Part shown: positions 15,924 through 64,000 of the stretch, in pieces
Position numbering within the stretch: the stretch's first letter is position 1
Layout of the letters: each line of letters begins with the position of its first letter
Origin: Eledone cirrhosa
Lineage: Eukaryota
Assembly: GCA_964016885.1 (NCBI GenBank)
Contig: OZ024743.1
Coordinates: 213,342,001 to 213,406,000, forward strand
Direction of reading: 5' to 3'
DNA length: 64,000 nt
Program-made: the position numbers and the translations under genes
The notes under the pieces: model-generated
What the model was told of the DNA's origin: nothing
Seen by the model: the letters and a program-made list of their open reading frames with translations, nothing else
Database searches by the model: none

Positions 15924-16122
15924 AGTATAAAAAAAATAAAAAGAAGATGAATCAGCAAGGTAATGAAATTTATGCTTATTTATCGAAGGATGAAATATAC
16001 ACTTGACCAGAACGCTGGGACTAATATCACGTGACGCTCTACCCAACGCTTTGTAAATTCGCTGCCTATATTTCGAAGATGCATACATACATGCATACGT
16101 AAAACATAAAAAATAACATGCA

Positions 16123-16300
16123 TACGAGGGTCGGCTGGAAAGTTCATAGACTGACCAAGATTCTCTCATGGAATGACAAAATGAAGTTTATTTTTTTTCA
16201 TAATCATTGGATAGAAAAAATGCAGTTATTAAGACGTGTTGAAAGTAATGAGTGCAAGATTTCACAGCTCTAGCATCACCTTCATAGTCAACCATCATAC
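16123..16300. mobile_element. Mariner-like non-autonomous fragment (other copies ~27755-27960 and ~53365-53560)
   Basis: TA followed by the mariner-type terminus cgagggtcggctggaaagttc; ctctcatggaatga.caaatg.ggtttattttt shared by three copies. Confidence 0.6.
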
Positions 16301-17080
16301 AGGCAAGTGCTAATCTCGAAAATCGGAACAGTATATACATGCAGGGCATTTTAAAACATCAATATGCCACAATTCGCCGTCGTTAACTTAATTCCTGAAA
16401 TAAGCTATTTTCTTTGGAAAAATTCACCAAATTAACAACAAAACAAAACAAAAGCAACGAAAGAAAACATATATATTCGCACAGATACATAACAAGCATC
16501 GTGAAGTTTCGGAAATATCTTGCATACACATTCTTATTGGTTATACGATGCGCTGAGAATGATTATTGGTAGAAAATTCACATAAACGTATATCAATTCA
16601 CAGCTAAACAGCTTCGATAATATATTCTAAATAGCATTGAGTTTACCGAAAAACTGCTGGTGTATATAGCAATAGTTATTGAGACTCATGTAACATCAAC
16701 TGGTTTTCAAGTGATATATACATACCAATTGAAGAATAGGTTTCCACAATTGTCGTAACAATCGGAAACAAGATATAGAAGACTCCAGATACCCACAAAC
16801 GTCCCTGTACATACAGGCCTGATTGAGCTACGTATTTGAACAAAGATATAGGGAAGGAATATTCGGCACACCGACAAATGCTTAGCTATGGTTATAATTC
16901 TCATAATCTTGAGAATGATACTAATACCGACAAGAAATGTAGCTGTTTTTCTAATGCCTGTCATATCACTACACAACGTTGTGGTAGTAAAGCTTTTATT
17001 TATTGGTCTTTTATTTGTGTAATAGTCACAGATTGATCAGTATTCCAGGAAACATGTATGCGTGAATGATTTATATGATT

Positions 17081-17112
<32 letters not shown>

Positions 17113-17122
17113 TGTATGTATG

Positions 17123-17150
<28 letters not shown>

Positions 17151-17153
<3 letters not shown>

Positions 17154-17730
17154 CATGTATCCCAGTACAACCTGTCCCATGGTCGGGTCGTTGGCGACTA
17201 AACTGGCAACCCCACCAAGGTTTCTTGGTGAGGAGGGTGACTTTGGACATCCTGCAGGACTAAAAACAAAACCTGTCAAAGGGCAGAGAAACTCTTAAGA
17301 GTCAATGGCCATCCAAAATCACCGGGAGAGATGACCCCTTAGACTTTGTCAAGGCAGAATTCTAGGAGAAGGAAAACTCTGATATAACGCCTGCAACCCT
17401 GATGATATCCAATGATGTTGACTTGTTCTTCTTTTTGGTAAATATCATCTTGGTTAAGAGAGTGGGAATGGCTTTGTGCAGTGTCTTTGCTCACTATAAA
17501 AGCTTCACGGCACAGGCATTGCTTTATATCTGGAGATCTCTCTGCACTTGTCGTCACATGGTACCATGGGCCCAGCACTGTGTCAATAATTGTCACAAGT
17601 GTAGTGTTTGTACCAAAGTTTACAAGTCGCTGGCCGGACTGAAAAGTCACACTCGTTCAGCGCATCGGTAGGGGTTCTCCTACATGGATATAAAGTAATG
17701 GCCGTACTCGAAAACGAGTTGGCAGCCACC
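17151..17730 (+). mobile_element. Non-autonomous RTE derivative, copy 1 (5' end ~25 nt short)
   Basis: Highly similar to copies 2 and 3; ends in the C2H2 codons CSVCTKVYKSLAGLKSHTRSAH, a stop, and the RTE-type 3' hairpin; (TATG)n on both sides. Confidence 0.85.
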
Positions 17731-17810
17731 ATGTATGTATGTATGTATGTATGTATGTATGTATGTATGTATGTATGTATGTATGTATGTATGTATGTAT
17801 GTATGTATGT

Positions 17811-18414
17811 CAGGTCACCAGTTGGTGCTACTGGTAACATGCATCCCAGTGCAACCTGTCTCATGGTCGGGTCGTTGGCGACTAAACTGGCAACCCCACC
17901 AAGGTTTCTTGGTGAGGAGGGTGACTTTGGACATCCTGCAGGGCAAAATAAAACCTGTCAAAGGCCAAAGGAGCTCTTAAGAGTCAATGGCCATCCAAAA
18001 TCACCAGGAGAGATGACCCCTTAGCTTTTGTCAAGGCAGAATTCTAGGAGAAGGAAAACTCTGATATAACACCTGCAACCCTGATGGTATCCAATGATGT
18101 TGACTTGTTCTTCTTTTTGGTAAATATCATCTTGGTTAAGAGAGTGGGACTGTCTTTGTGCAGTGCCTTTCCTCACTATAAAAGCTTCACGGCACAGGCA
18201 TTGCTTTATATCTGGAGATATCTCTACACTTGTCGTCATATGGTAACATGAGCCCAGCACTATGTGTCAATAATTGTCACAAGTGTAGTGTTTGTACCAG
18301 AGTTTTCAAGTCGCTGGCTGGACTAAAACGTCACACTCGTTCAGCGTATCGGTAGGGGTTCTCTTACATGGATATAAAGTAGTGGCCGTACTCGAAAACG
18401 AGTTGGCAGCCACC
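17811..18414 (+). mobile_element. Non-autonomous RTE derivative, copy 2 (~604 bp)
   Basis: caggtcaccagttgg...ctcgaaaacgagttggcagccacc; last His of the finger changed to Tyr; (TATG)n flanks. Confidence 0.85.
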
Positions 18415-18476
18415 ATGTATGTATGTATGTATGTATGTATGTATGTATGTATGTATGTATGTATGTATGTATGTAT

Positions 18477-20051
18477 ATTGAACAGGGCTTGGATCTGTAT
18501 CAGGTTTTTGTCGATCTGACAAAGGCTTTCGATACTGTCAACAGAGATGCATTATGGAAGGTTCTCCAGAAACTTGGTTGCCCTGATAAGTTCCTTGCTT
18601 TAGTTAGGTCTTTCCATGACGACATGAAGGCTTGGGTTAATGTCGGAGGTAACATGTCGGAGCCTATCTCAGTAAAAAATGGAGTGAAACAGGGGGATAT
18701 TCCAGCACCGACCCTGTTTGCCATATACTTTGCAATGGTTTTCTGTATTGCATTCAGGAATTGCGAGCATGGTGTTTACATCCGATATCGAACCTCAGGC
18801 AGCATATTTAACATCAGGCGCTTTGCTGCGAAGACAAAAGTATTTACATCAGTCATAAGAGACCTCTTGTATGCAGATGATTGCGATCTTGTAGCGCACA
18901 CAGAGAGTGATATGCAGCACATTTTGAATGTATTTTCTGACGCTTGCACTGCCCTGGGTTTGACTGTCAGTCTCAAGAAAACCGTCGTCATGTACCAACC
19001 TGCACCTGGTGGGCAGTACACTGAACCAAACATCTATGTGTATGGCAAACGACTTGGAGTGGTTGATCAGTTTGTCTACCTGGGAAGCACTGTCAATCGA
19101 TACGGCAACCTTGACAGTGAAATCTCACTTAGGATTAGGAAAGCAAGTGATGCTTTCGGAAAGCTAGAAAGGCGACTCTGGGGTCGGCGAGACATATGCA
19201 GGAGGACAAAGGTAAAGGTGTACAGGGCATGTGTACTCTCTTGTCTTCTTTATGCCTGCGAGACCTGGGTCACATATCGACGCCACCTTAAGCAATTGGA
19301 GCGTTTCCATCAGATGTGTCTCAGACGGATACATGGCGTTCGCTGGAGGGACCACATCAGTGATGTCGAGATTTTGGAAAGCTCTATGTGTGACAGTATA
19401 GAAGCTCTTGTGCTTAAGCAGCGACTCCGTTGGAGTGGTCACCTTGCCAGGATGAAGGATTCTAGAATACCAAAACAACTCTTCTATGGAGAGTTGGTTA
19501 AAGGAAAACGACCGCCACATAAACCAAAAAAGAGGTATAAGGATTCCTTGAAGGCCTCTCTGAAAGACGCTAACATCTCTGCTGATACATGGGAAAATGT
19601 TGCTGCTGATCGTAATAAATGGAGAAAGACTGTATATGAGGGAAAAGTTGCCTTTGAGGCATCTCGAATCGCACACGAGAAAGTAAAGCGGGACGTGAGG
19701 AAGGGTATTGCTGTTGCACTTCCAGACGGCGAGGGTCCTCCTATGTTTCTGACATGCAGCGTCTGTGCGAGACTCTGCCTAAGCAAAGCTGGACTCGAAA
19801 GTCATCTTCGCAGTCATAAAGTAAGACCAGTGGTTGACTACCAGGCTGCTGTTGGAGATGCTACTCATCATGCTTGCCAAACATGTGGTAGAGAATGTAA
19901 ATCAGCAGGAGGACTCAAGCGACATGCAAAAGTACACGAACTCCAACCACAGCCGACTATTCCCAGTAAATGTTTTGGTTGCCGACTCTGTGCAAGACAT
20001 TTTGGATCATTGGCTGGGCTAAAAAGCCACATTCGATCGCAGCACTGTTAG
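18477..20051 (+). CDS. RTE-type reverse transcriptase (N-truncated, uninterrupted) with three C-terminal C2H2 zinc fingers
   Basis: FVDLTKAFDTV, GVKQG, LLYADD, FVYLGS, LRWSGHLARM; fingers CSVC..HLRSH, CQTC..HAKVH, CRLC..HIRSQH. The listed ORF start at 18423 is translated microsatellite. Confidence 0.93.
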   Translation: MEQGLDLYQVFVDLTKAFDTVNRDALWKVLQKLGCPDKFLALVRSFHDDMKAWVNVGGNMSEPISVKNGVKQGDIPAPTLFAIYFAMVFCIAFRNCEHGVYIRYRTSGSIFNIRRFAAKTKVFTSVIRDLLYADDCDLVAHTESDMQHILNVFSDACTALGLTVSLKKTVVMYQPAPGGQYTEPNIYVYGKRLGVVDQFVYLGSTVNRYGNLDSEISLRIRKASDAFGKLERRLWGRRDICRRTKVKVYRACVLSCLLYACETWVTYRRHLKQLERFHQMCLRRIHGVRWRDHISDVEILESSMCDSIEALVLKQRLRWSGHLARMKDSRIPKQLFYGELVKGKRPPHKPKKRYKDSLKASLKDANISADTWENVAADRNKWRKTVYEGKVAFEASRIAHEKVKRDVRKGIAVALPDGEGPPMFLTCSVCARLCLSKAGLESHLRSHKVRPVVDYQAAVGDATHHACQTCGRECKSAGGLKRHAKVHELQPQPTIPSKCFGCRLCARHFGSLAGLKSHIRSQHC

Positions 20052-20059
20052 TTGCTATC

Positions 20060-20101
<42 letters not shown>

Positions 20102-20180
20102 GCTTATGTGCGTGCGTGTGTGTGTATATATATATGAATATGTATATTATTATTGTTGTTGTCTTTATTATTATTATTGC

Positions 20181-20238
<58 letters not shown>

Positions 20239-20314
20239 TTTTTTTTATTTTTTTTTTTATTTTTTTTTTTATTGTGCAATGGCCATACTCGATAACGAGG
20301 GGGCAGCCATCATC
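18477..20314 (+). mobile_element. 5'-truncated RTE-clade LINE
   Basis: RT ORF followed by a 3' UTR ending tggccatactcgataacgagggggcagccatcatc and then (ATGT)n. Confidence 0.92.
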
Positions 20315-20744
20315 ATGTATGTATGTATGTATGTATGTATGTATGTATGTATGTATGTTCTTCTGGTTTTATAATTTCACAATTTTTTTCCCAATAGAGA
20401 GAGAGTTGGTTTCTAACATAGACACAAGACTCTCTCATTGGAATTTACACAACATCAACTAGGTAGTTTATGTATGCATGCATGCGTAGATATGGATGTT
20501 ATTGTATGTGTGGATGTGTATGTTTTGAGTTGTATGTGTGCATGTGTATATGCTTTATATCTGTACACGTGTATATGTAGTTATTAGATGCAAAAGTTTT
20601 GGAATGTTTTACATATTTTTACTGTTCCATTAATGGATTGTACTTGTAGTTTCCTAACTAGTTGTGTTCTTTCTGTTCCTGTGAAGCCTAGCTTCTCAAG
20701 ATTTGTATTGAGGCAGTTACAAACATATCCCAGTGCCCCAATAA

Positions 20745-22483
20745 CACCGTTAACAAAAACAAATTTTTTCTCTGTTCCTGGCTTGTAATCACTTTTTTTG
20801 TGTTGTTTAGGTCCCAAATAAATAAAAAAGTGCTATTAAACAGTTAAAAGTTTGGGTTTGTAAAAATTCTAACTATTCACTAGAATTATTTGTATGCTGG
20901 ATTTTACGTTGTATGTAAGTTTAATTTGCTTATGTTAAATGATTTTTTTTTATATATGTTTCAGGTTAAATTAAAATTATAAAATAAAGAGTAATATCTA
21001 AAGAAAATTATAAAAGTGCAATGAAGTATAAAGTTGTTAAAAAGTGGATTAAAGAGATTTATTGATACTGGATTTTCGCACTCTGAATAAAGGGTAAGTT
21101 GTGTTTTAAGCATTTGTCTCCAGGATGAAGCAGTGGAACTTGGTCAAGGAGGAGTGCAGGTGACAAGTCAGAGAAGTCGACATGAACCTTTCTCAGGCTT
21201 TTACACTCTTAGGGATGGCCTCTGCTTCTGCCATGACGTGCCTGGACTGTTTGACGTCATTGGGGTGCAATTTGTGCCCAAGGAGTGGCGGCTATTTATA
21301 GACAGCTCCACCACAAGTTTGAAGGCTGTCCTCCTCCACAATGGAAACAAGTTCCCGACAATGCCCCTAGATCATTCAGTCTGCCCGAAGGAAGATTACT
21401 AGTATGAAAGTCCTCTTGGAAGCTCTGCAATACAGCTAGTACAATTATGAAATCATTGGATTCTTCAAGATGGTGGCTTTCCTGCTTGGACTCCAAGGAG
21501 GCTTTATCAGATTCCAATGCTTCCTCTGCCTTTGGGACAGCAGAGCCACCTCTGACCACTACACAAGAAAGAACTGGGAGCAGCGAACAGAATTTGTAGT
21601 TGGGACCCGGAACGTCATGAGGGAGCCACTGGTTGATCCCAGGACTGTGCTTATGCCGCCACTGCACATTAAGTTGGGGTTGATGAAGCAGTTTGTGAAG
21701 GCTCTCAACCAAGAATCAGCCGCTTTTAAGTACCTTCTTGAGTTCTTCCCCAAGTTATCTGAGGCCAAAATCAAAGGTGGAAATTTTGTTGGACCTCAGA
21801 TAAAGAGGGTGTTTGAGTATACCGAGTTCTCCAATAAGCTCAATAGGATTGAGAGAACAGCATGGAACTGTTTCAAGGCAGTTGTTAAGAGCTTTCTGGG
21901 AAACTACAGAGCTGAAAACTACCAGCAACTGGTGCAGGATCTGATAAAGGCTTTTGGCGCCATGGGATGCAAGATGTCGTTTAAACTCCATATGCTGGAC
22001 GCTCACCTGGACAAATTCAAGGACAATATGGGCGCCTATTCAGAAGAACAAGGCGAACGATTCCACCAAGATGTGAAAGAGATAGAGCGGAGGTACCAGG
22101 GCCACTACAATGAAAAAATGACGGGGGACTATATCTGGGGGCTAGTGCGGGAATGCGACCTGGACCAAAACAGCAAATCCAGGAAATCCAGTCATTTCTG
22201 ACGTGTATAAGTTGCATTATAAGTGTTATTTGTTTTTACTTGCTTGTTTTTGATAGGCTTGTGTAATAAAATAAATATATACTCTGTTGATTTAATTATA
22301 TGAACTAATAAATTAAAAAAAAATGTGTTTTTTCTTGAAAAATATGAAAATTTCGAAATATCAAACCCCTGACCACAAACCCAAACTTCTGATTAAATAA
22401 TAGTGTTTTTTTTATAATAATGGGATATAGCAAACCATGAAATGACACTTAGAACCGGGGAACAAAAAATATGCTACACGGTG
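20745..22483 (+). mobile_element. Chapaev3-type (CMC) DNA transposon, internally deleted, 1739 bp
   Basis: Termini CACCGT...ACGGTG with a 3-bp TSD TAA (20742-20744 and 22484-22486); removing it restores MPVIIGALG in the host retrotransposon. Confidence 0.8.
21133..22201 (+). pseudogene. C-terminal part of a Chapaev3-like DDE transposase, with a stop near 21400
   Basis: EWRLFIDSS..SLKAVLLHNGN, GLQGG..CFLCLWDSR, PPLHIKLGLMKQFVKAL, SEEQGERFHQD; family assignment from recalled motifs plus the TSD. Confidence 0.8.
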
Positions 22484-25400
22484 TAATCACAGGCATAAAT
22501 CTGAAGGTGTAATCAGGGTGGAGTATCTGCAGATTTCTCATCAGTTCTGCATAAATATTCTCCTTTTCGCTAATCTTTGATATTATATTGGCATCTTCTG
22601 GGCAGCTAATTTCCACTACTTTGCATGCTTTCTTCTCCCTGTCCCATATCATAATATCTGGTCTGTTATGCCTACATTTTATTGGGGTTTTTACTGGAAC
22701 ATTCCACCAGTACTCTTTCATATTATGTACGTGGATGTCTCCCACATTGCTGTAGCTTTTAATGTGTTTATTATCGGGGCTATCCTTTTTATGAACTGCA
22801 TTGTACAGTGTTTTGGCCACTCCATCATGCCTCATAGGTAGATAGTACCGCGATGGCATCTTTTGACAGCTGCTGATGACATGGGTGATATCCTCGATGT
22901 TAGTTCTGCAGAGTCTGCAATTGTTATCACATCTAGGTGTTTTGCCTGCATCCCTATCTCTTTTGTGAATCAGGTATTTCGTGTTAATCTCCTGTTCTTG
23001 GATTGTAAAAGCGTATCCTTCAAAGTGGGAGCCAATATAGCGGTTGTTGGGCCAAGATAGACTATTTTCCTTATCTATATTACTCTCACTCTGGAGCTTC
23101 CTGGCAACATATCCATGCATGATTTTTTTGCTGATAACCATACAATTTTTCATCCATGGATTCACTGCGATACTGCTGAGCGACATCCCTGGGTGTGAGT
23201 TTTTGATTATCACACAGGGAATATCTCTCGAGGAGTTCCTTCCCAACTCTCATGATCTTATCTGTTTCATGCAGATAGACTTGCTCGAGAGACGGGCTCC
23301 TACGCTACGAGGTTCGTAGATGTTGTCGGGGAGATATGATGCGACATTCAAATGCTGTCTGGACTGATGTTAGGCCTCTGCCTCCCTGCGTACGTTTCAA
23401 GTAAAGGCAGTCTATGTCACTGTTGATGTGGAAGTTTCCGGAGTTGTTTAGTATTTTTAGAGTACCAGCATCAACTGCTCGGATTTCGTCTATCGTCCAA
23501 TTGAGTATTCCAAACGTTGGTGTTTGGACAGGCACAGCAAACACATTGTGAGCCACTGTTTTGTTTTGCGCAGAGAGTTCCGATGACCAGGTCTTTCTTA
23601 ATAGGGTGTAGTATTCCCTGGTTACGCATTCTTTATTACATATACCATTATAGGATATGTTCTCATCTATCCCCAGGTATCTGTAGCAGTCCTCATCAGA
23701 TATCGGTGAAACAGTTAGGCCATTAATGACAATGTTGCTAGATTAGGTTGTTGTTTTTCCACGCTTTACAATCATCTATGGGCATTTATCTTGGCCAAAC
23801 TCAATTCCTATATCCTTTGAGAACGTTGTAACCAGGTCAAGATTTTTCTTCATCCCATCCATGTTCTTGGAATATAAATTATGGGTTAGGTTCGTATGTC
23901 TGTCCTCCTGTGAGCCAATGATGTATCCCTCACATTTCCTGAGCAGAAAGGACAAGGGCTTTAATGAAGAGATGAATAATATCATAGAGAGACTGTCCCC
24001 CTGAAATATACCCCTGCAATATTTTATTTTATCAGTGAAAATAAAGTCCTCCCTCTCTGTCTTTAATCTTAGGATAGTAGCCCAAGAAGAAGACAGCCTC
24101 TCTATGGCTCTGACAATAATGCCTGGGACTTTAGCAAGTTGGAGGGCCTCTATCATCCAAGAGTGGGGAACAGAATCGAAAGCTTTCCTGTAGTCCAGCC
24201 AGACTGTAGTCATATTCCTCCTAAGTTGTCGCACCTCCGACATAGAAGTTTTGTTGATTAGGAGTTGTTCAGCACATCCCTAAACCCTTTCTTTCCAGCT
24301 GCTTGTTCATCTGTGATGATGTTATTATTTTCACAGTGATCTTGGAGGAATAGGTTCAGGCAGGCTGTATACATCTCATACATCAGATTCTGGCATGCAA
24401 TGGGTCGGTAGTTTTTTGCCAAGTGGGTGTCTTTGTTCTTGGGGACCAGTAATGTTTGTGCTAATATCAACCATTCTGCTATAAGTCTATCTTCCTTAAA
24501 AACTTATTGGTAGAGGTCAGTAAGATACCTCCGATAAAATATCAGTTTTTTGTACCAGCAGCTGACAATCATGTCTCTTCCTGGTGTTTTCTTATCTTGG
24601 AGTTTTCCTATCACAGTCTCAAGGGTACCCTCACTTATTTCGTATGTTTTTGTTGTAGTGTAGGAGCAATAGTTCTTTGGAATTTCTCTTAGCCACACTG
24701 CATATTGGTTGAAATTCTTCTTTTCACCCCATATTTTGCTCCAAAAGGAATTTATGTCTTTCTGGGATGGGGCCTCAGTGACACTTATTATTTTGTTCTT
24801 CATATCTCTATAGACTGATGTTTGGTTTCGTCTGAATCTTTTATTAAGCAGTTTTCTCTCATCTACCTTCTTCAGGTATCGGCGTTTTTCGCTAACAGCT
24901 CTCAATTCTTGTTTGAAGGTGATCAGATTGAAGAGTTCTGGTTCTACTGTTACCATCGCCTCTATTTTTTATTTTTCACTCTTTGTTGGTGAGGAGTGAG
25001 GTTTTTTTGTGTTTGTTTGCATGTAAGGAACATTGTCACACATCCTATGGTTTTTCGTAGGTCAGCAATCTTTTTTTCTATTTTAGTTATATGTGATGGT
25101 ATTTTTGGTGGTGTTCTGTTCTTGTTAATATCTCTGCTATCACCAAGATAATGCTTCACTGTCATTGCTAAGGCATATAAACAGGCGTTGATTTGCCAAA
25201 ATGTTAGGGTTTTTATCTGTCGTAAATATTCATCCCCTATTTCGTCAATAACACGTAATATTTCATTATTTGTTTTTTTATTAAACATTGTCGTTTTAAT
25301 ATGTTCAACTAAAGAGATGAATTAATTTCTCTCTGGAAGATTTCGTTGAGGGAAATTTTCAATTGTTTATACTTTTGATTATTATCATTATCGATAGTAT

Positions 25401-26205
25401 TTTCCACAACAGTCGAGGTAGACTCGGATGGTACACGTGGTGTCAAATTTCTTTGATTATTATTATTATTTCTTCGATTATTATTATTACCGATAGTATT
25501 TTCCCCAGCATTCGAGGTAGACTTAGATGGTACAGGTGGTGTCAAGTTTCTTACAGGCATAGTTGTTTCAAGGCACTGTTCGACCTGGCTGCTAGGAAGT
25601 CTAGTAGCATGGCGACCTGTAGCACGTGTTGTTGATAACATGTTTGTTGTGGGGGACTTACAATTAATACTATTTATCTTATTCTTACGTTCAACAAACG
25701 TCGCTTGTTGGCGTAATTGTTTCGCTGTGAAATAATTTAGCTCTGGGTGCATTCGTCCCAGTGTAGCTTCATTCTTTTCATATAGCCAATGGAGAGATTG
25801 TTTTTTGCCATTTTATAACAATTAAATAAATCACTATTAAGTTCGCAACTCCAGGAGAAATGCGATTTATAATTTCAGTCTCTTCTGTAGCTACAACTGA
25901 ATAGAGTTTGTTTATCTTTCTTGTTGGTTGTCTTCGATACTTCCTTAATTTTGTTGTGGATGTTGTGTTCAGCCATGCTGTTTGTAGCAAATCCTTGTAA
26001 AATGAATTATGTATTAAGTCGGACATCTCTACGAATTCGAATAAAAGGTGTCTTCAGAAGATATAGTTAGAAGAATAACCAGTTGTTGTGGCATTATTGT
26101 CGGAGATAGCATTCATCTTAAATTTAATAAATAGTCTCCCACGCCAAAATATGCGACTTATCGTGTTGACTGTATGTATGTATGTATGTATGTATTTTTA
26201 TATGT

Positions 26206-26810
26206 CAGGTCACCAGTTGGTGCTAGTGGTAACATGTATCCCAGTACAATCTGTCTCATGGTCGGGTCGTTGGCGACTAAACTGGCAACCCCACCAAGGT
26301 TTCTCGGTGAGGAGGGTGACTTTGGACATCACGCAGGACTAAAAACAAAACCTGTCAAAGGGCAAAGGAGCTCGTAAGAGTCAATGGCCAACCAAAATCA
26401 CCGGGAGAGATGACCCCTTAGCCTTTGTGAAGGCAGAATTCTAGGAGAAGGAAAACTCTGATATAACACCTGCAACTCTGATGGTAGCCAATGATGTTGA
26501 CTTGTTCTTCTTTTTGGTAAATATCATCTTGGTTAAGAGAGTGGGAATGGCTTTGTGCAGTGCCTTTGCTCACTATAAAAGCTTCACGGCACAGGCATTG
26601 CTTTATATCTGGAGATCTCTCTACACTTGTCGTCACTTGGTACCATGGCCCAGCACTATGTGTCAATAATTGTCACAAGTGTAGTGTTTGTAGCAGAGTT
26701 TTCAAGTCGCTGGCTGGACTAAAAAGTCACACTCGTTCAGCGCATCGGTAGAGGTTCTCCTACATGGATATAAAGTAGTGGCCGTACTCGAAAACGAGTT
26801 GGCAGCCACC
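26206..26810 (+). mobile_element. Non-autonomous RTE derivative, copy 3 (~605 bp)
   Basis: Same start and end as copy 2; intact finger CSVCSRVFKSLAGLKSHTRSAH. Confidence 0.85.
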
Positions 26811-27015
26811 ATGTATGTATGTATGTATGTATGTATGTATGTATGTATGTATGTATGTATGTATGTATGTATGTATGTATGTATGTATGTATGTATGTAT
26901 GTATGTATGCATGTATGTATGTATGTATGTATGTATGTATGAATGTATGTATGTATGTATGTATGTATGTATGTATGTATGTATGTATGTATGTATGTAT
27001 GTATGAATGTATGTA
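26811..27015. repeat. (TATG)n microsatellite closing the insertion nest
   Basis: Directly visible. Confidence 0.97.
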
Positions 27016-27449
27016 TGTGTGTATATTATGAGTCGTCCAAGAACCACATTCGTTAGCACATCAATTAACACATTCTAAAACCTTATTCCTAAACCTCAAC
27101 CAATGCTGAAAGTCTATCCTAAAGCAGGCTCTTTAAAACTAAAATAGAATATACACAAAATACAAATGAAAATAAATGCATGAATACATATATATATTAA
27201 TTTATCCTTTTGTTTACATTCGTTTTGTCTTACTTGATACATATCAGTAACAGAAGTATGTAAAGTCACCAAATTATCGAGGGTTTCAAAATAAAAGCTT
27301 ACAAGAATAACACTACTTGTAAAGTCAAGTTAAAAGAATCTGAAAGTGAACCAATCAATTCAATATAACAGTTGTGTGAGGCCAAAATAATTTTTGCAAC
27401 CTTTGTTAATTTTTATGGATATCATTCGTTGAAAAGACATTATTTGTTA

Positions 27450-27732
27450 CCTTCTTCTTCTTCTTCTTCTTCTTTGCCCACTTATTCCTGAGAGGGTCGG
27501 AGGCAGAGTCCTCAAACACTTCTTTCAGCGGGTCCTGTCAGAAACAACCGTCTCCAACTGATGCCCAAGAAAGACTAACAAAGCTCATGGATGCTATCCA
27601 ACTATCCTGCTAGTTATCTACCCCTGGATCTTATGCTGGCTGGATTTGCCTGTAAAATCTGTACAGCAATTCTTTCCTGAGACATTCTAACTACATGCCC
27701 ATGGTATCGGATAATCTAGTGGAGGATGTTAG
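27450..27732 (-). mobile_element. Old 5'-truncated RTE-like LINE 3' end with a (GAA)n tail
   Basis: Minus frame RYHGHVVRMSQERIAVQILQANPASIRSRGR*; 11-bp TSD attatttgtta at 27439 and 27733. Confidence 0.75.
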
Positions 27733-28921
27733 ATTATTTGTTATCAATATATATAGTCAAAGGCCGACTGAAAGTTTCCTAGGCTGAAAAGTCCATACGT
27801 GACGAAGATACTCTCATGGAATGATCAAATGAGGTTTATTTTTCAACATAGACCATGGAAAGAAACAATGCAGTTATTAATAAGAAGAGTTGAAATTAAT
27901 TCATTAAATATTTCACAGCTTTAACATCACTCCTTCATAGTCAACCTATGAACATTTCTGCCATCTCTCGTGTGATAAGTGTGTGGGTGTGTGTGTCTAT
28001 GAAGTGATAGGGGGAGTGAGATTTTGGTGAGATTTTGTAATTAGTACCAACATTCCAAGTGCCTGCACGCTCATAAATCAATCTTGAAATATGTACGTAC
28101 ATAATACACACATGCATACATACGTACACACATTCGTATGTACATACATACATACACACACAATACATACCTACATGCATACATACATAATACATACATA
28201 CATACACAGATACATACATAATACATACATACATACACACATACATACATAATACATACATACACATTTCCATAGAAAAATACATAAATATTCATAAACA
28301 TAGGTATTTACATATACGCAGATATATTCATATACTCCCACATAGAACAATTTGCTTAAATGCATGCAGTATTAGTGAACTTAATTTCTTTGAAAACACA
28401 ATGATATCCACACTGTTTATATTAATTTTTCCTTGTATATTTTGTTTCCTCTCACTTCCATTTTGTTTCCTTTCACAACACCCAACTAAGTAAATATTTT
28501 ACTTTCATTTCTGTGTAAATGTTGGTTGGACATTAAAACACGTCATTTAAAAATAAATACAGTAAGTGTGAAGAAGAAGACGACGACGGAGAAGAAGAAG
28601 AAGGGTGAAAGGAAAATAAAGCAAAAAACCCAAAACAAAAAAAAACAACAACAGCAACAACAAAGCGCAACAAAACAAAGAAAAAAAACCTACGAAACCC
28701 CCTCCCCCCCCATAAATACGAAGCAAAAACAACACCAAGAGAATGAAATGAGTCTTAAGCAAAATGTACGTTCAATTATTTTAGTTTTGCTTTTAATATA
28801 TTTTATATAATAACTCGACTGTTTGATTTTTTTCTTTACTTTACTTTTTGACAAGCCGATGTAGTCTTATCGTTTATTTAAGATTGCAATCAGGTAAGAA
28901 AATTGAATGCGAAAGCCTCAA

Positions 28922-29514: not shown

Positions 29515-29628
29515 ACGTATGGTAGCCAATGATGTTGATCTGTTCTTCTTTTCGAATACTTGTCATCCATGTTTAGAGAGTGGGATTGGTCCAGTGCAAG
29601 ACCTTTCTTCACTTAAAAGCTTCATTGA
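29515..29628 (+). mobile_element. Diverged fragment of the 5' region of the non-autonomous RTE family
   Basis: atggtagccaatgatgttga..tgttcttctttt...agagagtggga.tgg...gtgca...cact.taaaagcttca matches 26481-26586. Confidence 0.65.
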
Positions 29629-31180: not shown

Positions 31181-31213
<33 letters not shown>

Positions 31214-31246
31214 TTTTTTTATTTTTTTTTATTTTTTATTTATTTA

Positions 31247-31283
<37 letters not shown>

Positions 31284-31323
31284 CTCTCCTCGTCCAATGG
31301 CCATACTCGATAACGAGGGGGCA

Positions 31324-31330
<7 letters not shown>
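31073..31330 (+). mobile_element. 3'-UTR-only copy of the zinc-finger RTE
   Basis: caatggccatactcgataacgagggggcagccatca is identical to 20277-20312 and is preceded by similar (TAT)n, GT and T-rich tracts. Confidence 0.8.
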
Positions 31331-31385
<55 letters not shown>

Positions 31386-35452: not shown

Positions 35453-37056
35453 AATATAAAAAGCAAAAAAAAAAGCAAAAAAAAACAAAACACGATGAAT
35501 TTCATTTAAGGATTTCATAACAAATGTGTCATGAAACTGAAGTTCTTCAACTAGTGCTCATTTTCTTGTCACCCTATCATTATTTTGTTATTCAGTACAA
35601 TATCAAGGTACAATTACTTGTGGGTTGGGTAATAAATCATACCATTGCTAAATAGTAACAAGGTGACGTCTTCGAACAGTTGGTTATTATGTAAGTGGCT
35701 TATTCGATGTTTAGCCCACAGTCTGCCTCTGTTGTCGCACCTCTTTCTTTCGTGCGCCAGGTATTTCGTTAGTATTTCCTCTCATTGGATTACAAACGCC
35801 TCTCCTCCCAATAGTAAACCGGTTGTTGGTCAAAGAAGACTAGTTTGGTTATTGATATTCTCACTTTGAAGATTTCTGACCACATAGCCAAGCAGAACTT
35901 TGCTGATATATATAGATTTTCATACGTTGCGGTAGTGTCGTGCAATGCTCCTGGTTGTGTGTTTGTGGTTATTATTTGGTGAGTATTTCTGAAAAAGCTG
36001 CTTCTCAGCTCTTATCATGTTATCTGCCTCATGTAGATATATGTGGTTAGTAAATGTTGTCGAAGGGGTACAATGTGACATTCAAAAGCAGTTTGTATCA
36101 ATGTAGTTACGTACGTACGTACATACGATTGTATGTATGTATGTATGTATGTATGTATGTATGTATGTATGTATGTATGTATGTATGTACGTACGTATGT
36201 ATGTATATATGTATGTATTTATGCATGTATGTATGCATGTATGTATGTATGATGTACGTAGTTACGTGTGTTTACCTGTATGTATGCATTTATGTATGTG
36301 TATGTATGTATGAATGTACATCCACATACACACTAACACACACACACACACATATATGTATATCTGTATGTACATATTCATGTGTGTGAGTTTACATGTC
36401 TGTGTGCAGCTATGTTGTTTTCTAAGCAGTTATATAAACAAATGGACGTATGCTGGAATATTTAAAGTGTATATTTGATTCTTAATGCTACAATTTTAAA
36501 TTGGAATGAAACAAAGAATTTTAAACAGAGAATAAAATATAAAAACGTATTCTAGAAGAAAATACAACGGAAGAATTCCAATTCTATAGTTCTTTCCTGC
36601 AAATTCTATTTGTTAATCAAAGACTTATTCGCTGATATCTTTTAAAATTGTTTTGATTTTTCTTGTTTGAAATATTTCTATTTGATTTAATTCTTGATAT
36701 TATGAATAAATAAACATTACATTTCCATTCTTAGAGAATCCTGAATTTCAAACTTCTATAAAAGTTAATTTATATTTTTTCTATGAATATGTATCTTTGT
36801 GTTTTATTAGAAGATTGTAATCGTATTTTTTTTCATTAGATTTCCTTCCTTGCTTTATATTAATTTATTTTTAATTTACAGAATTTCCAAATCTCGAAAG
36901 TTAGAAAAACAGTAACAAAAGTTCTCTATTGAATACATTTGATTTTATTAAAACTACCGTTAGAACTATTAGTAGAGGTAGTTTTTTCTTCTCTATTTCA
37001 GTAATTCAATCTGTAAAAGACATATTGCCAACAGGAAAGATAATAGAAAATAAAAT

Positions 37057-52803: not shown

Positions 52804-52932
<129 letters not shown>

Positions 52933-55387
52933 ATGAAAAACAAAACCCGCCACAGGGCAGACGAACTCAGGAGAGTCAACGGCCATCCAATAAACATTTT
53001 TTTCCCATTTCTTTTTTGTGTGGAGAGAGAGCCTCCATGTCTTTATTAAGACATCTCTCCTTTCTGCACAGCATTCCGTCTATAGCAGTTTGTCTCAACT
53101 ATTATTTATAATGATTTACTCTTATCATAGTCCCTTACATTGGGGAGACTGAATTTGAAATTTACCAAGTTTCATAAGATGCTCGAATTTTCACACTTCT
53201 AGCATACAATTTTCAAATAGACGTAACTGGTGGTTAGAGACCCATTGATCATAATCGTCAGTGCACTCGCAAATATCTCTGTCTATATCGTCCATTTCCA
53301 GAGGTCCTGATCTCGATTTTCTCAATTAATATTTATAGTGATAGACTAGTGTAGTAATAATATACTAGGTTTGGCTGAAAATTTCAGATTGAAAAGTTCA
53401 TTGGTTGACCAAATACTCTCATGGAATGATCAAATGCGGTTTATTTTTCAACATAGTCCCTAGAAAGATACAATGCAGTTATTATTAAGAAGAGTTGAAA
53501 TTAAAGCAAGCAAGATTTCACAGCTCTAGCATCACTCCTGCGAAGTCCGCCTATGAATTTTTCGGTATGCACAAATCCTCCCCCCCGCATATATATTTCG
53601 TCGTGTGGATAAGAGCCCACGTATTTACATATTTCATACACTTTAACTTTCATATTATTCGTTCGTGCAGTCTCATATACACGCAAATACTAGCACATCA
53701 AACACCTTTTCTCAGTCAACATCTCAATAAACACAGTCCAATAGCTAGAAGCAGCGGAAAAAGAAACGAATAACACATACACACACACACAATGCGCATA
53801 CACACGCACACAATACACAAATAAACATACAGCAGACACAAACATACACATACATATACATCTATATTTACATTTTATTCCCATATCTGTAAACTGGAAG
53901 TATGAATAAACATTGAGTCATATCGTGTTGAATAACAAAAGATTTGAAACCGTGTAGCGCCTATCGGGTGTTCTAACTATGTTTGCACTACGTGTGTCTC
54001 CAATCTATTTGTCTTATATTGTATTTCCGGCAAGCCCTGCCAGTGTTTGTCGATTTCCAATGTTTTTCGTTTACATTCATATTGACCCATATTGATATAT
54101 CGCTTCGCTTTCTGTCATTTTCTACTTACTATGTTTTTAAAATGTTGTCTTGTTCTAATTTTTACTTTATTACCTGCAAATCTAAACTGTATAAACATGC
54201 TGAACCGCAACACATACAGCAGAAAAATATTCCAAAAGACTGAAAAAACAAGACAAAAATTTCGAAAAAAACTCCACCAAACTGTAACCGTTCCTACGTC
54301 TACATACTCACTGCAAGTATAAGCTTCTAAAAAAAGAAAGAAAATAAATAGCTGGAGATTGGACATAGTAATAATGAGTTCTAATTCTGGTGCAAGGTGA
54401 GCAAGGTTGAGGAGATGGAAAAAACGATCATATTGACCGTAGTAATTGACTGTTATAATCGATTAATGAAAGATGGAAGGCTAAGTTAACATCTTTGGAA
54501 TTGGAACTCAGAATTTAAAGAGTCAGAATTCGGAGGTGGCAATGGTGGAAATCGAACAACGTTGCTATTTCGAAGCATCAATTCACATCTAACTAAAATA
54601 TTGAAAATAGAAGAAGAAAAATAGACGTCGGCAGGTTTTCATGTTGAGTGTTATAGTGTTTCGGTGACAAGAACAGCCTTTTAGTGAAATTATTGTACAC
54701 GTAAATGGTTGAGCATTCTCAGCGTAATTCTAAGGGAGATTCAGGTTGAAACAGTGTATAAAAATGCGGCCGTCCCTTTGAATTAAACGCACATTCAATT
54801 TGATGGGCTTCCAAACTGTTTCTCTCATTCACAAGACTTAGGTTGACATTTAAATATTCTGACATCACAACATGGTATTTGGCTTACAGCAGTATTTGTG
54901 ATATTTATCTGTGTGCATATTTTAATTAACATTTTCACCTGAGATCGTGCACTGTCGTGACTTTAACATTTATATATCAACGTAATCCAAGACTATTTAA
55001 ATTGCAAATGTTAATTGAATATTTTACCCCTTCTTCAGGAAGTAGAGCACTTATTAATGTTAATTTATTAACAGGGTGCTTTTGGGAACTGCATGCCTAC
55101 CAATTCATATCAGTTTGTATCTGACATAGATCTGTGGTCTAATGTTATCTGGAAAGAAAATGAAACAACAGCAAAAAAACAGCAAAAAAACATCAAAAAA
55201 AAACAGCAAAAAAACAGCAAAAAAAAACAACAAACCCCCAAAAAACAACAAAAAAAGAACAGCACGAACATCAACTGGAACATAAAAAGAAAACCTTAAA
55301 AGCAAAATGAATGCTTCACTTTCTGAAGGGATGACTCAAGAAGAAAAAGAAAAAAACGACGACGACGACAAAGAAGAAGAAGGGTGG

Positions 55388-62700: not shown

Positions 62701-63443
62701 TGTATAACTATAATCAAAAAGAAAAATATGCTCATTGCCCTATCCGAAGGTGTTAATACATCGAACTTCGCATTTGGTAAGAAACTGGTATTACACCTAA
62801 TATATTCATCTCAAATATATATATATATAGTAATAATAATAAATTTGAAGACTAAATCCAAAGAGGGCTCGAAAAGGATAAATATATATCAAATATATAA
62901 GAACCCTCGACAAATATTTATTAAATAACAGCGATTCTTTGGTTAGAGTTTAATCTGTTATTTTAATAAATATATATATACATATACATACATAGATATA
63001 TACATTGATTTATTATGGGTATTGGTGAGCTTTATTACTCTACTTCGGTATTGCGTTTTCATTCTTACGTCCGTCAATAATTTACATATTCTCAGGTCAT
63101 GAAAAATAATCCCCATCCCCCGCTTATCAATTTCTCTGATTCCTCACCCCGGTTTTTATTCCATGTCTGTATATCTACAACCACCAAATTCCTACACCTC
63201 TCTGAAACGACTACACGGTATTCTGTTCTATATCAATTACCACTTGATATAGACGTGAATTACTTCGCTCCGGATTTTTACGGATTATTGTCAAAAAAAC
63301 TGTGAGTTCTTTGCTCAATTTAATAGCATTGTTTAGTTTAACGCCTTGCCTGGGCTGTCAGACGTTGAGTCAACTAATTTTCGCCCCTTTCTGGGGCGAA
63401 ATTTTCATTTTCATCTCAAAACTGTGTAGACTTGGTATCAGCA

Positions 63444-64000
63444 ATGGATGCCATTTCCACCTCGCACACTGTCGTGAGTGCCACGCCCACTAAGAAAAGT
63501 GGTGGATGGAAGGTAGGAGTACAAAGCTTGCAGCCTTCCCCCCTCGCATTATCGAAAAACGTTGAAAATATTGAAACCACGAAACCAAACCCGGTAAATA
63601 ATACCAGCACCAACAACAAGAACAATGACAATAACACCACAACCAACAACTGCAACAATAGCAACACCAAGGAAAACATGAACAATATTACCAACAGTGA
63701 CAGCAACAAAAAAGACAACAACACCAAAACAACATTCGCACAGACTGTAAAAAAAAACGAACTATTTACGCCAATCGACATAACAAATGCTAAACAACTA
63801 TTACAAGACGCAAAACAATTCGTGACTCTTGGCGAAAACGGTGCTTTTAGCATCAATTCTCCACAGGAATTACGTAGAGAGGCTGTCCTGAAAACCACAG
63901 TTTTCAGGACAATATCGAACGAAACAAGAAAACCAGCTCAATTATCACAAAATGAAATTATGCTGGTTCTAAAAGATGCAATGAAGGACTTAACCTTCAT
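63444..64000 (+). CDS. Open frame of at least 185 aa running off the window; probable ORF1 (gag-like) of a non-LTR retrotransposon
   Basis: MDAISTSH... Asn/Thr-rich linker, then TFAQTVKK...LRREAVLKTTVFRTIS...; no stop before the window end, so it is absent from the ORF track. Confidence 0.5.
   Translation, partial: MDAISTSHTVVSATPTKKSGGWKVGVQSLQPSPLALSKNVENIETTKPNPVNNTSTNNKNNDNNTTTNNCNNSNTKENMNNITNSDSNKKDNNTKTTFAQTVKKNELFTPIDITNAKQLLQDAKQFVTLGENGAFSINSPQELRREAVLKTTVFRTISNETRKPAQLSQNEIMLVLKDAMKDLTF

Follow-up and report, generated by a model that had tools for sequence, protein, structure and literature searches.

Opposite-strand insertion of RTE-type and R4/Dong-like retroelements into (TATG)n microsatellites of the Eledone cirrhosa genome

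Two groups of retroelements in one microsatellite

A stretch of 64,000 nucleotides from Eledone cirrhosa (assembly GCA_964016885.1, contig OZ024743.1, positions 213,342,001 to 213,406,000 of the forward strand; hereafter the window) contains a cluster in which six (TATG)n tracts alternate with five retroelements: three ~605-bp non-coding derivatives of RTE elements (E1, E2 and E5), one RTE-type long interspersed element (LINE; E3) and one R4/Dong-like element (E4). We are fairly confident that this stack reflects independent insertions into the microsatellite by two groups of elements, which keep a fixed opposite polarity throughout the genome; for each group, an active choice of the array by the element's own proteins is likely. 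The RTE-type LINE and its short passengers occupy the TATG strand and join it at ATRT on their 3' side, with a short target duplication and no added tail; the R4/Dong-like element occupies the CATA strand, with array at both ends. An earlier note made from the letters of the window had proposed the order of tracts and inserts, the common orientation of the four RTE-family members and the array as landing site of both clades. Tracts, domains and alignments bear out that order, E1, E2, E3 and E5 all lie on the plus strand and E4 on the minus strand, and flanks and strand counts support a common, strand-polar target. What had been presented as a local curiosity is instead one instance of a genome-wide rule, with thousands of array-flanked ends of both groups, and the locus is one ordinary stack among many.

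The cluster begins with tract A1 (17083-17152, 17.5 units; all tracts are given on the plus strand), followed by E1 (17153-17730, +), which lacks ~25 nt of its 5' end, and by A2 (17731-17810, 20 units), whose last TATG forms the first 4 nt of E2. The full-length E2 (17806-18414, +) comprises a 5'-untranslated-region (UTR)-like part, a remnant of the last C2H2 finger and a 3' stem-loop. After A3 (18415-18476, 15.5 units) comes E3 (18477-20314, +), 5'-truncated but with an open reverse transcriptase (RT) frame and three C-terminal C2H2 fingers (stop at 20049-20051), and then A4 (20315-20358, 11 units), which separates the 3' ends of E3 and E4. The full-length but decayed E4 (20358-26170, -) has A5 (26171-26195, 6 units) at its 5' end, and the full-length E5 (26201-26810, +) is followed by A6 (26811-27024, 53.5 units).

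Preference of RTE-type elements for the array

The family of the short element is represented genome-wide by at least 10,308 5' ends, counted as occurrences of a 20-nt 5' motif. For a sample made up of the first 90 copies listed, which all lie on contig C1, the 24-nt stretch preceding the element's own leading TATG was of the TATG class in 56, TA in 24, TG/CA/mixed in three, other in seven and CATA in none. In a background of 40 fixed 10-kb genome slices (400 kb), a flank of the TATG class precedes 1.0% of positions and 2.8% of ATRT sites, and one of the TA class 7.6% and 49.8%, respectively. From this comparison, TATG is preferred by the short element and TA only tolerated. The proposal of (TATG)n as target holds in substance, with the amendment that the first TATG ahead of TCAGG is part of the short element itself (63/81 copies) and that (TA)n and mixed arrays are targets too.

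At the scale of the genome, three further perfect in-phase TATG units precede 1,657 of the 10,308 5' ends, where ~1 is expected, and on the opposite strand (CATA)3 lies within 8 nt of the 5' motif in just 16 rows at 15 places. Truncated short copies, without the leading TATG, showed TATG in 26, TA in 3, CATA in 1 and other flanks in 7 (n=37), in a sample enriched for clusters since the loci were picked via neighbours; most of the seven others are internal deletions. For the RTE itself, the 5' junction could be read in eight of 12 long copies fetched. Arrays of TATG or TA/TG surround it in five, and a short tract in one; of the other two, one has a 5' inversion and one lies outside any array. 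Random 5' flanks would have spoken against targeting, as the earlier note had pointed out, and those of the short element are far from random. In the reverse direction, randomly picked arrays had a family neighbour at 4/6, all four in one cluster, which is too few to use.

Target or tail at the 3' junction

The short element ends in ...GCAGCCACC, and the bases after this end match the target. Among 81 copies with both ends, the next four bases were ATGT in 47, ATAT in 30 and other in 4, which leaves 34 copies with no ATGT unit after the element. The repeat types of the two sides agree: with TATG upstream, the 3' side was ATGTATGT in 25 copies and ATATAT in 3, and with TA upstream in 2 and 17 (Fisher p 6e-8; the table leaves out 29 copies with neither class on one side and five 'other' to ATATAT). 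Non-periodic target duplications of at least 8 nt were found in 16 of the 81 copies, all starting at the first base after the element with no added tail, against a mean of 3.1 (maximum 9) in 300 shuffles that paired flanks of different copies; in 15 of these 16 informative copies the duplication measures 8-17 nt. The RTE-type 3' ends carry (ATC)1-2 in 29/30 cases, followed by ATGT in 12, ATAT in 11 and other bases in 7, and slippage at 3' ends was seen in the trinucleotide end (ACC, ATC) only. Since the 3' repeat matches the type of the 5' flank and the duplications start directly after the element, the repeat following an RTE-type 3' end is target and not product. The idea that (ATGT)n tails extend the array was thus not borne out, and the notion of a self-amplifying target survives only in a weaker sense, in that every insertion keeps array on either side of it and duplicates ~2-4 units.

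An alternative scheme, in which element RNAs with long (AUGU)n tails would pair with arrays, prime there and add units at each insertion, so that the elements build their own target, appears unlikely to us in the light of these junctions, in particular the 34 copies with no ATGT unit, the start of 16/16 informative duplications directly after the element, the concordance of both sides and the slippage confined to trinucleotides. Some observations do speak for it. An RNA read through from a parent inside an array would have such a tail, G-T wobble could let AUGU pair with both ATGT and ATAT (the junctions in 77/81 copies), and three copies (L116, L133 and L165) show a long ATGT run on the 3' side only. 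Tail-made microsatellites have been described for moth RTEs (PMC2887409), and pairing of the RNA end has been proposed in the choice of RTE sites (PMC6007223). Priming of the RTE-type elements through a very short AU/AUGU overlap is possible.

The R4/Dong-like element and its reverse polarity

Without its nested transposon, E4 measures ~4.07 kb and is 92-93% identical to other copies. Its broken frame contains an RT (PF00078) followed by a CCHC motif and a PD-(D/E)xK restriction-like endonuclease, both read in the translations, and APE is absent. The best solved relatives of the protein are R2 proteins; one of its matches is named Argonauta hians, and no named Dong/R4 reference occurs among the 120 matches listed. 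In sampled copies, (TATG)n in the orientation of the window was found at 30/30 3' ends and at 30/30 full-length 5' ends (background 1.2-1.5%). In this line, R4 3' ends adjoin TATGTATG in reverse in 4,088 of 5,552 cases genome-wide, and none of the 5,552 lies within 4 nt of CATACATA. The family shows the target-specific insertion, into rDNA or a microsatellite, that characterizes R4/Dong elements, although its target is (CATA)n and not the (TAA)n of Dong in the strict sense.

A set of 40 R4 copies (L201-L240) was fetched, 32 of them with both ends and 25 of full length. On their 5' side the wider repeat extends further than on the 3' side (median 83 vs 29 nt, p 0.007), and perfect units are alike on both (median 4 vs 4, p 0.32); binding on one side, or growth at the 5' junction, may account for the longer 5' repeat. 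Several full-length copies of the set have only 2-3 units on the 3' side, adjoining unique DNA. The 5' part of the element carries an 80-bp internal duplication (25374-25453 and 25473-25552, 87% alike) that is also present in other copies. At six loci (L053, L090, L104, L109, L172 and L192) another repeated end adjoins (TATG)n in the same reverse sense as R4, and likely represents a second R4-like family.

The other clade was present within 1.5 kb at 49 of 120 anchor loci, some of which overlap, and 47 of these 49 showed the polarity of the window only; among 120 random 3-kb pieces, RTE-type sequence was found in six and R4 in none. Two-clade stacks like that of the window are common in this genome.

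The evidence from both clades bears on a passive origin, by which the elements would insert at any ATRT and the arrays would grow later by slippage, from the TATG start or the duplicated target, or insertions in arrays would merely be retained. Such an origin is attractive in that the short element does start with TATG in most copies (63/81), ATRT alone accounts for the strand choice and for the (TA)n class (49.8% of ATRT sites being TA-flanked), and the six arrays of the window, which sum to ~124 units, hint at some regrowth. It is improbable all the same, given that TATG flanks amount to 62% against 2.8% of ATRT sites, that 5'-truncated copies and near-identical young copies are also array-flanked, and that R4, with different ends, lies in the same arrays at 60/60 sampled ends.

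Target-primed reverse transcription provides the established basis on which active insertion can be pictured. The RTE protein would nick the CATA strand at ATRT, and reverse transcription would be primed at the end of the conserved 3' stem-loop, aided by an overlap of at most 2-4 nt (AU/AUGU). The restriction-like endonuclease of R4 would nick the TATG strand instead. With each insertion one array would become two, both usable as targets, and these are likely regrown by slippage, so that stacks would accumulate.

The short elements: independent copies and their probable partner

E1, E2 and E5 are three copies of one ~605-bp element (mean column identity 95%) without coding capacity (no open reading frame of 150 aa). 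The element matches the RTE 5' UTR at 73% across 153 nt and has a similar 3' stem-loop, and a search for a small-RNA head (tRNA or other) gave repeat-driven Rfam matches only, all below the gathering score. To judge from its sequence, the element is a bipartite non-autonomous RTE, composed of 5' and 3' RTE parts only. Its 3' end is alike but not identical to that of E3, and the short passengers are likely mobilised by the RTE of E3 or by a sister family. A second non-autonomous family of ~600 bp, also found in TATG/TA arrays (L063, L066, L068, L073, L079, L083 and others), has the exact 3' end of E3 and may be the direct passenger of its family; because it is this family and not E1/E2/E5 that shares the exact end, a sister RTE may be the true partner of the short element.

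The three local copies were aligned with 80 of 90 sampled ones (both ends present, normal length), 83 in total. The identity between local copies, 94.6-95.5%, falls short of the family median (96.4%); they rank 57th-72nd of 82 as mutual neighbours, have 0-1 derived states in common and come together in 0% of 200 bootstrap trees. Copies on another chromosome are closer to them than they are to one another. A tandem duplication, which the earlier note had named as what would undo its reading and which predicts that local copies are each other's closest relatives, is thereby ruled out for E1, E2 and E5. A local duplication or an assembly error as origin of the whole cluster is hardly credible: a duplicated block of this kind does exist elsewhere (L057/L059, contig C1, ~20.77 Mb, R4 pieces plus short element, period ~2.4 kb), but the relationships of E1, E2 and E5 just given contradict it, and of the three only E1 is truncated. 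At two places far apart (L004 and L125) the short-element copies are identical, a sign of recent activity. Divergence would suggest that R4 entered first (92-93% to other copies), then the short elements (~97.5% to the family majority) and then the RTE (98.5%).

The RTE-type LINE and its family

E3 corresponds to the 3' 1.8 kb of a LINE, with an RT match (PF00078, E 7e-19) and three C-terminal C2H2 motifs, and is 98.5% identical to an intact copy elsewhere whose 1,211-aa frame holds APE, RT and three C2H2 motifs. Intact copies at L094 and L098 (1,211 and 1,207 aa) have a single open reading frame with an N-terminal APE endonuclease (PF03372) and PF00078, and the best solved relative of the protein is L1 ORF2p. 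The 3' UTR of E3 contains simple repeats and ends in GCAGCC(ATC)2, the family end being ...GCAGCC(ATC)1-2. Among the traits of the RTE clade, a single APE+RT frame, a short target-site duplication (known from the short-element copies) and a short 3' repeat end are present, and the group departs from the described, though not formally defining, RTE habit of non-specific insertion. No named RTE reference (RTE-1, BovB, Rex3) was among the matches found, and the RT trees hold unnamed relatives only. The intact copy at L098 (1-791) has an inverted 5' segment, as in twin priming. RTE-like 3' ends with variant last bases stand before TATG arrays at L216, L228, L233 and L235, from which we conclude that several sister RTE families have the same array habit.

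Points against active targeting

Several findings weigh against active targeting as proposed here, or limit its reach. About a quarter of RTE-type copies lie in (TA)n and ~8% in no repeat, so that the specificity for the array is looser than in the R1/Tx1 models, and the flank samples all come from one chromosome. Informative duplications are lacking in 65/81 copies, mostly because pure repeats hide them, and the 3'-only units of L116, L133 and L165 could be an added tail as well as a position at the array border. For R4, target duplications were seen in 2/25 copies against 1.7 in shuffles, which is not above chance, and the CATA at its 3' end may partly be a tail. The three finger helices of the E3 family bear small residues (S, A, G), unlike fingers that read bases. 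The aligned contigs gave no informative empty orthologous site. Outside this genome, the contigs of four of the six relatives described below do not include the 5' end, so that a tail by itself could account for these four, and the metagenome contigs are collapsed.

Relatives in other genomes

A metagenome scan with a single RTE protein as query found no relative. An alignment-based scan of metagenome contigs gave 80 loci, 55 of which reached far enough into the C-terminus to be compared. In six relatives the 3' end has a similar stem-loop with ATGT after it: at least four units in L241, L243, L244 and L245, two in L264 and one ahead of the contig end in L242. Three fingers are present in five of these, and (TATG)n stands at the start of L241 and L243 as well as at the end. 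In the other 49 relatives the repeat is (CAA)n, (CAT)n, (CATA)n, (TGA)n or (CA)n, or there is none, and several break off short of the 3' end. In a 32-row RT tree (quick search), E3 and the six form one clade (SH-aLRT 99). In a 152-row FastTree tree, at least two fingers were present in 85/99 rows of the smallest enclosing clade and in 0/53 outside it, the additional 120 rows being protein matches to a finger-bearing query, which biases the set towards that clade. To judge from these trees and 3' ends, a multi-zinc-finger RTE branch has likely inherited the array preference, which would then be no quirk of this genome. With somewhat more conviction than doubt, we propose that targeting of (ATGT)n arose independently in a widespread sub-lineage marked by C-terminal C2H2 fingers, two or three in number. 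After R1 and Tx1, site specificity would thus have a third origin among APE-type LINEs, in this genome with a target in common with a retargeted R4/Dong branch that uses the opposite strand, giving polarised stacks.

The nested DNA transposon and the surroundings of the cluster

The five retroelements of the earlier inventory were confirmed, and a sixth element had been overlooked, a 1.74-kb DNA transposon nested in E4 (20745-22483, +). It has CACCG...CGGTG ends and a 3-bp duplication of the TWA type (TAA, 20742-20744 and 22484-22486); other R4 copies are uninterrupted at this site, and the contigs of all four aligned runs skip the transposon, which would have entered E4 after E4's own insertion. 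Its frame is broken and transposase-like, with no Pfam match. By its ends alone, namely terminal inverted repeats starting with CAC and the TWA duplication, it is probably Chapaev3-like; the described Chapaev3 elements (PMC3014272) resemble it in these ends and in the 1.74-kb size, and it differs from them in its broken transposase without Pfam match.

The cluster stands between two related copies of a high-copy repeat that point the same way (16131-16293 and 27781-27946); we take the start of this repeat to resemble a mariner-type end. Joints from 16152-16279 to ~27800 in the aligned contigs are a product of this repeat on both sides; among the listed contigs from four runs aligned to 16100-27900, no joint spanning the cluster was found, and the unique left flank was covered by X1 alone. 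No RNA data set was among the matches listed. Relatives of the short element, of the RTE 3' end and of the R4 frame, older and more diverged, are found as fragments at 29519-29624, 31211-31377, 35740-36039 and 52925-52990. A weak PF03563 match (E 7e-4, under the curated cut-off) in a 173-aa stop-to-stop frame at 63419-63937 (-) is probably due to chance.

Comparison with known systems and implications

Microsatellite-targeting retroelements without long terminal repeats are already known, and the surprising part is the RTE branch. RTE insertion sites appear not to be sequence-specific, with the RTE repeat lying within the duplication (PMC2887409), and among APE-type elements site-specific members are reported from the Tx1 and R1 clades only (PMC6007223, PMC4640811). 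Dong targets (TAA)n, and Waldo of the R1 clade targets ACAY (PMC3812793, PMC7998251). In octopus, RTE and Dong-R4 families are active and one RTE has a C2H2 finger, and the parts of these accounts covered here mention no target preference (PMC9115989, PMC13282606). No description of RTE or Dong targeting (TATG)n was found in the literature searched, Repbase and subscription papers being outside its scope. Bipartite RTE derivatives are known (PMC5786205), and moth short interspersed elements with (ATGT)n have been interpreted as carrying tails (PMC8010984).

Like the E3 family, RTE-2_OV of Octopus vulgaris (PMC9115989) and lepidopteran RTEs (PMC2887409) have a single APE+RT frame, short duplications and frequent 5' truncation; RTE-2_OV (1,109 aa), likened to E3 by its description only, shares with it, in addition, a C2H2 finger and a 3' UTR rich in microsatellites (PMC9115989). 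The RTE signature of Nishiyama and Ohshima (2018), in which the first base of the duplication matches the 3' end of the element and a short RNA-DNA overlap is proposed, is also that seen here. Theirs, however, was a weak T-stretch signature, whereas here we find a tetranucleotide array with ~20-fold enrichment over ATRT, and ~1,700-fold for perfect in-phase units (PMC6007223). RTESINE, WALLSI3 and Bov-A (PMC5786205) join a 5'-UTR part to an RTE 3' end, as E1/E2/E5 do, with no small-RNA head found in the latter, which differ in keeping a remnant of the last zinc finger and in having the array preference in common with an RTE. Dong, DongAg, DongBg and ostracod Dong (PMC3812793, PMC7998251) resemble E4 in RT, restriction-like endonuclease, microsatellite at both ends and fixed orientation, but target (TAA)n instead of (CATA)n. 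WaldoAg1/2 and WaldoFs1 are APE-type, and among the repeats of their ACAY class is (ACAT)n, which as a duplex is identical to (TATG)n; they belong, however, to the R1 clade of insects, and the elements described here are RTE-type and R4-type (PMC3812793).

If this interpretation is true, the intact copies of 1,200 aa in a targeting RTE branch, together with its close relatives that do not target, permit domain swaps (endonuclease, fingers, RNA end) that would ask directly what sets the choice of target in LINEs. Moreover, APE and a restriction-like enzyme acting on opposite strands of one duplex offer a natural comparison. Repeat-flanked RTEs would also be read anew, with the microsatellite as target and not product, which bears on the annotation of repeats and on how microsatellite markers are used in these large genomes.

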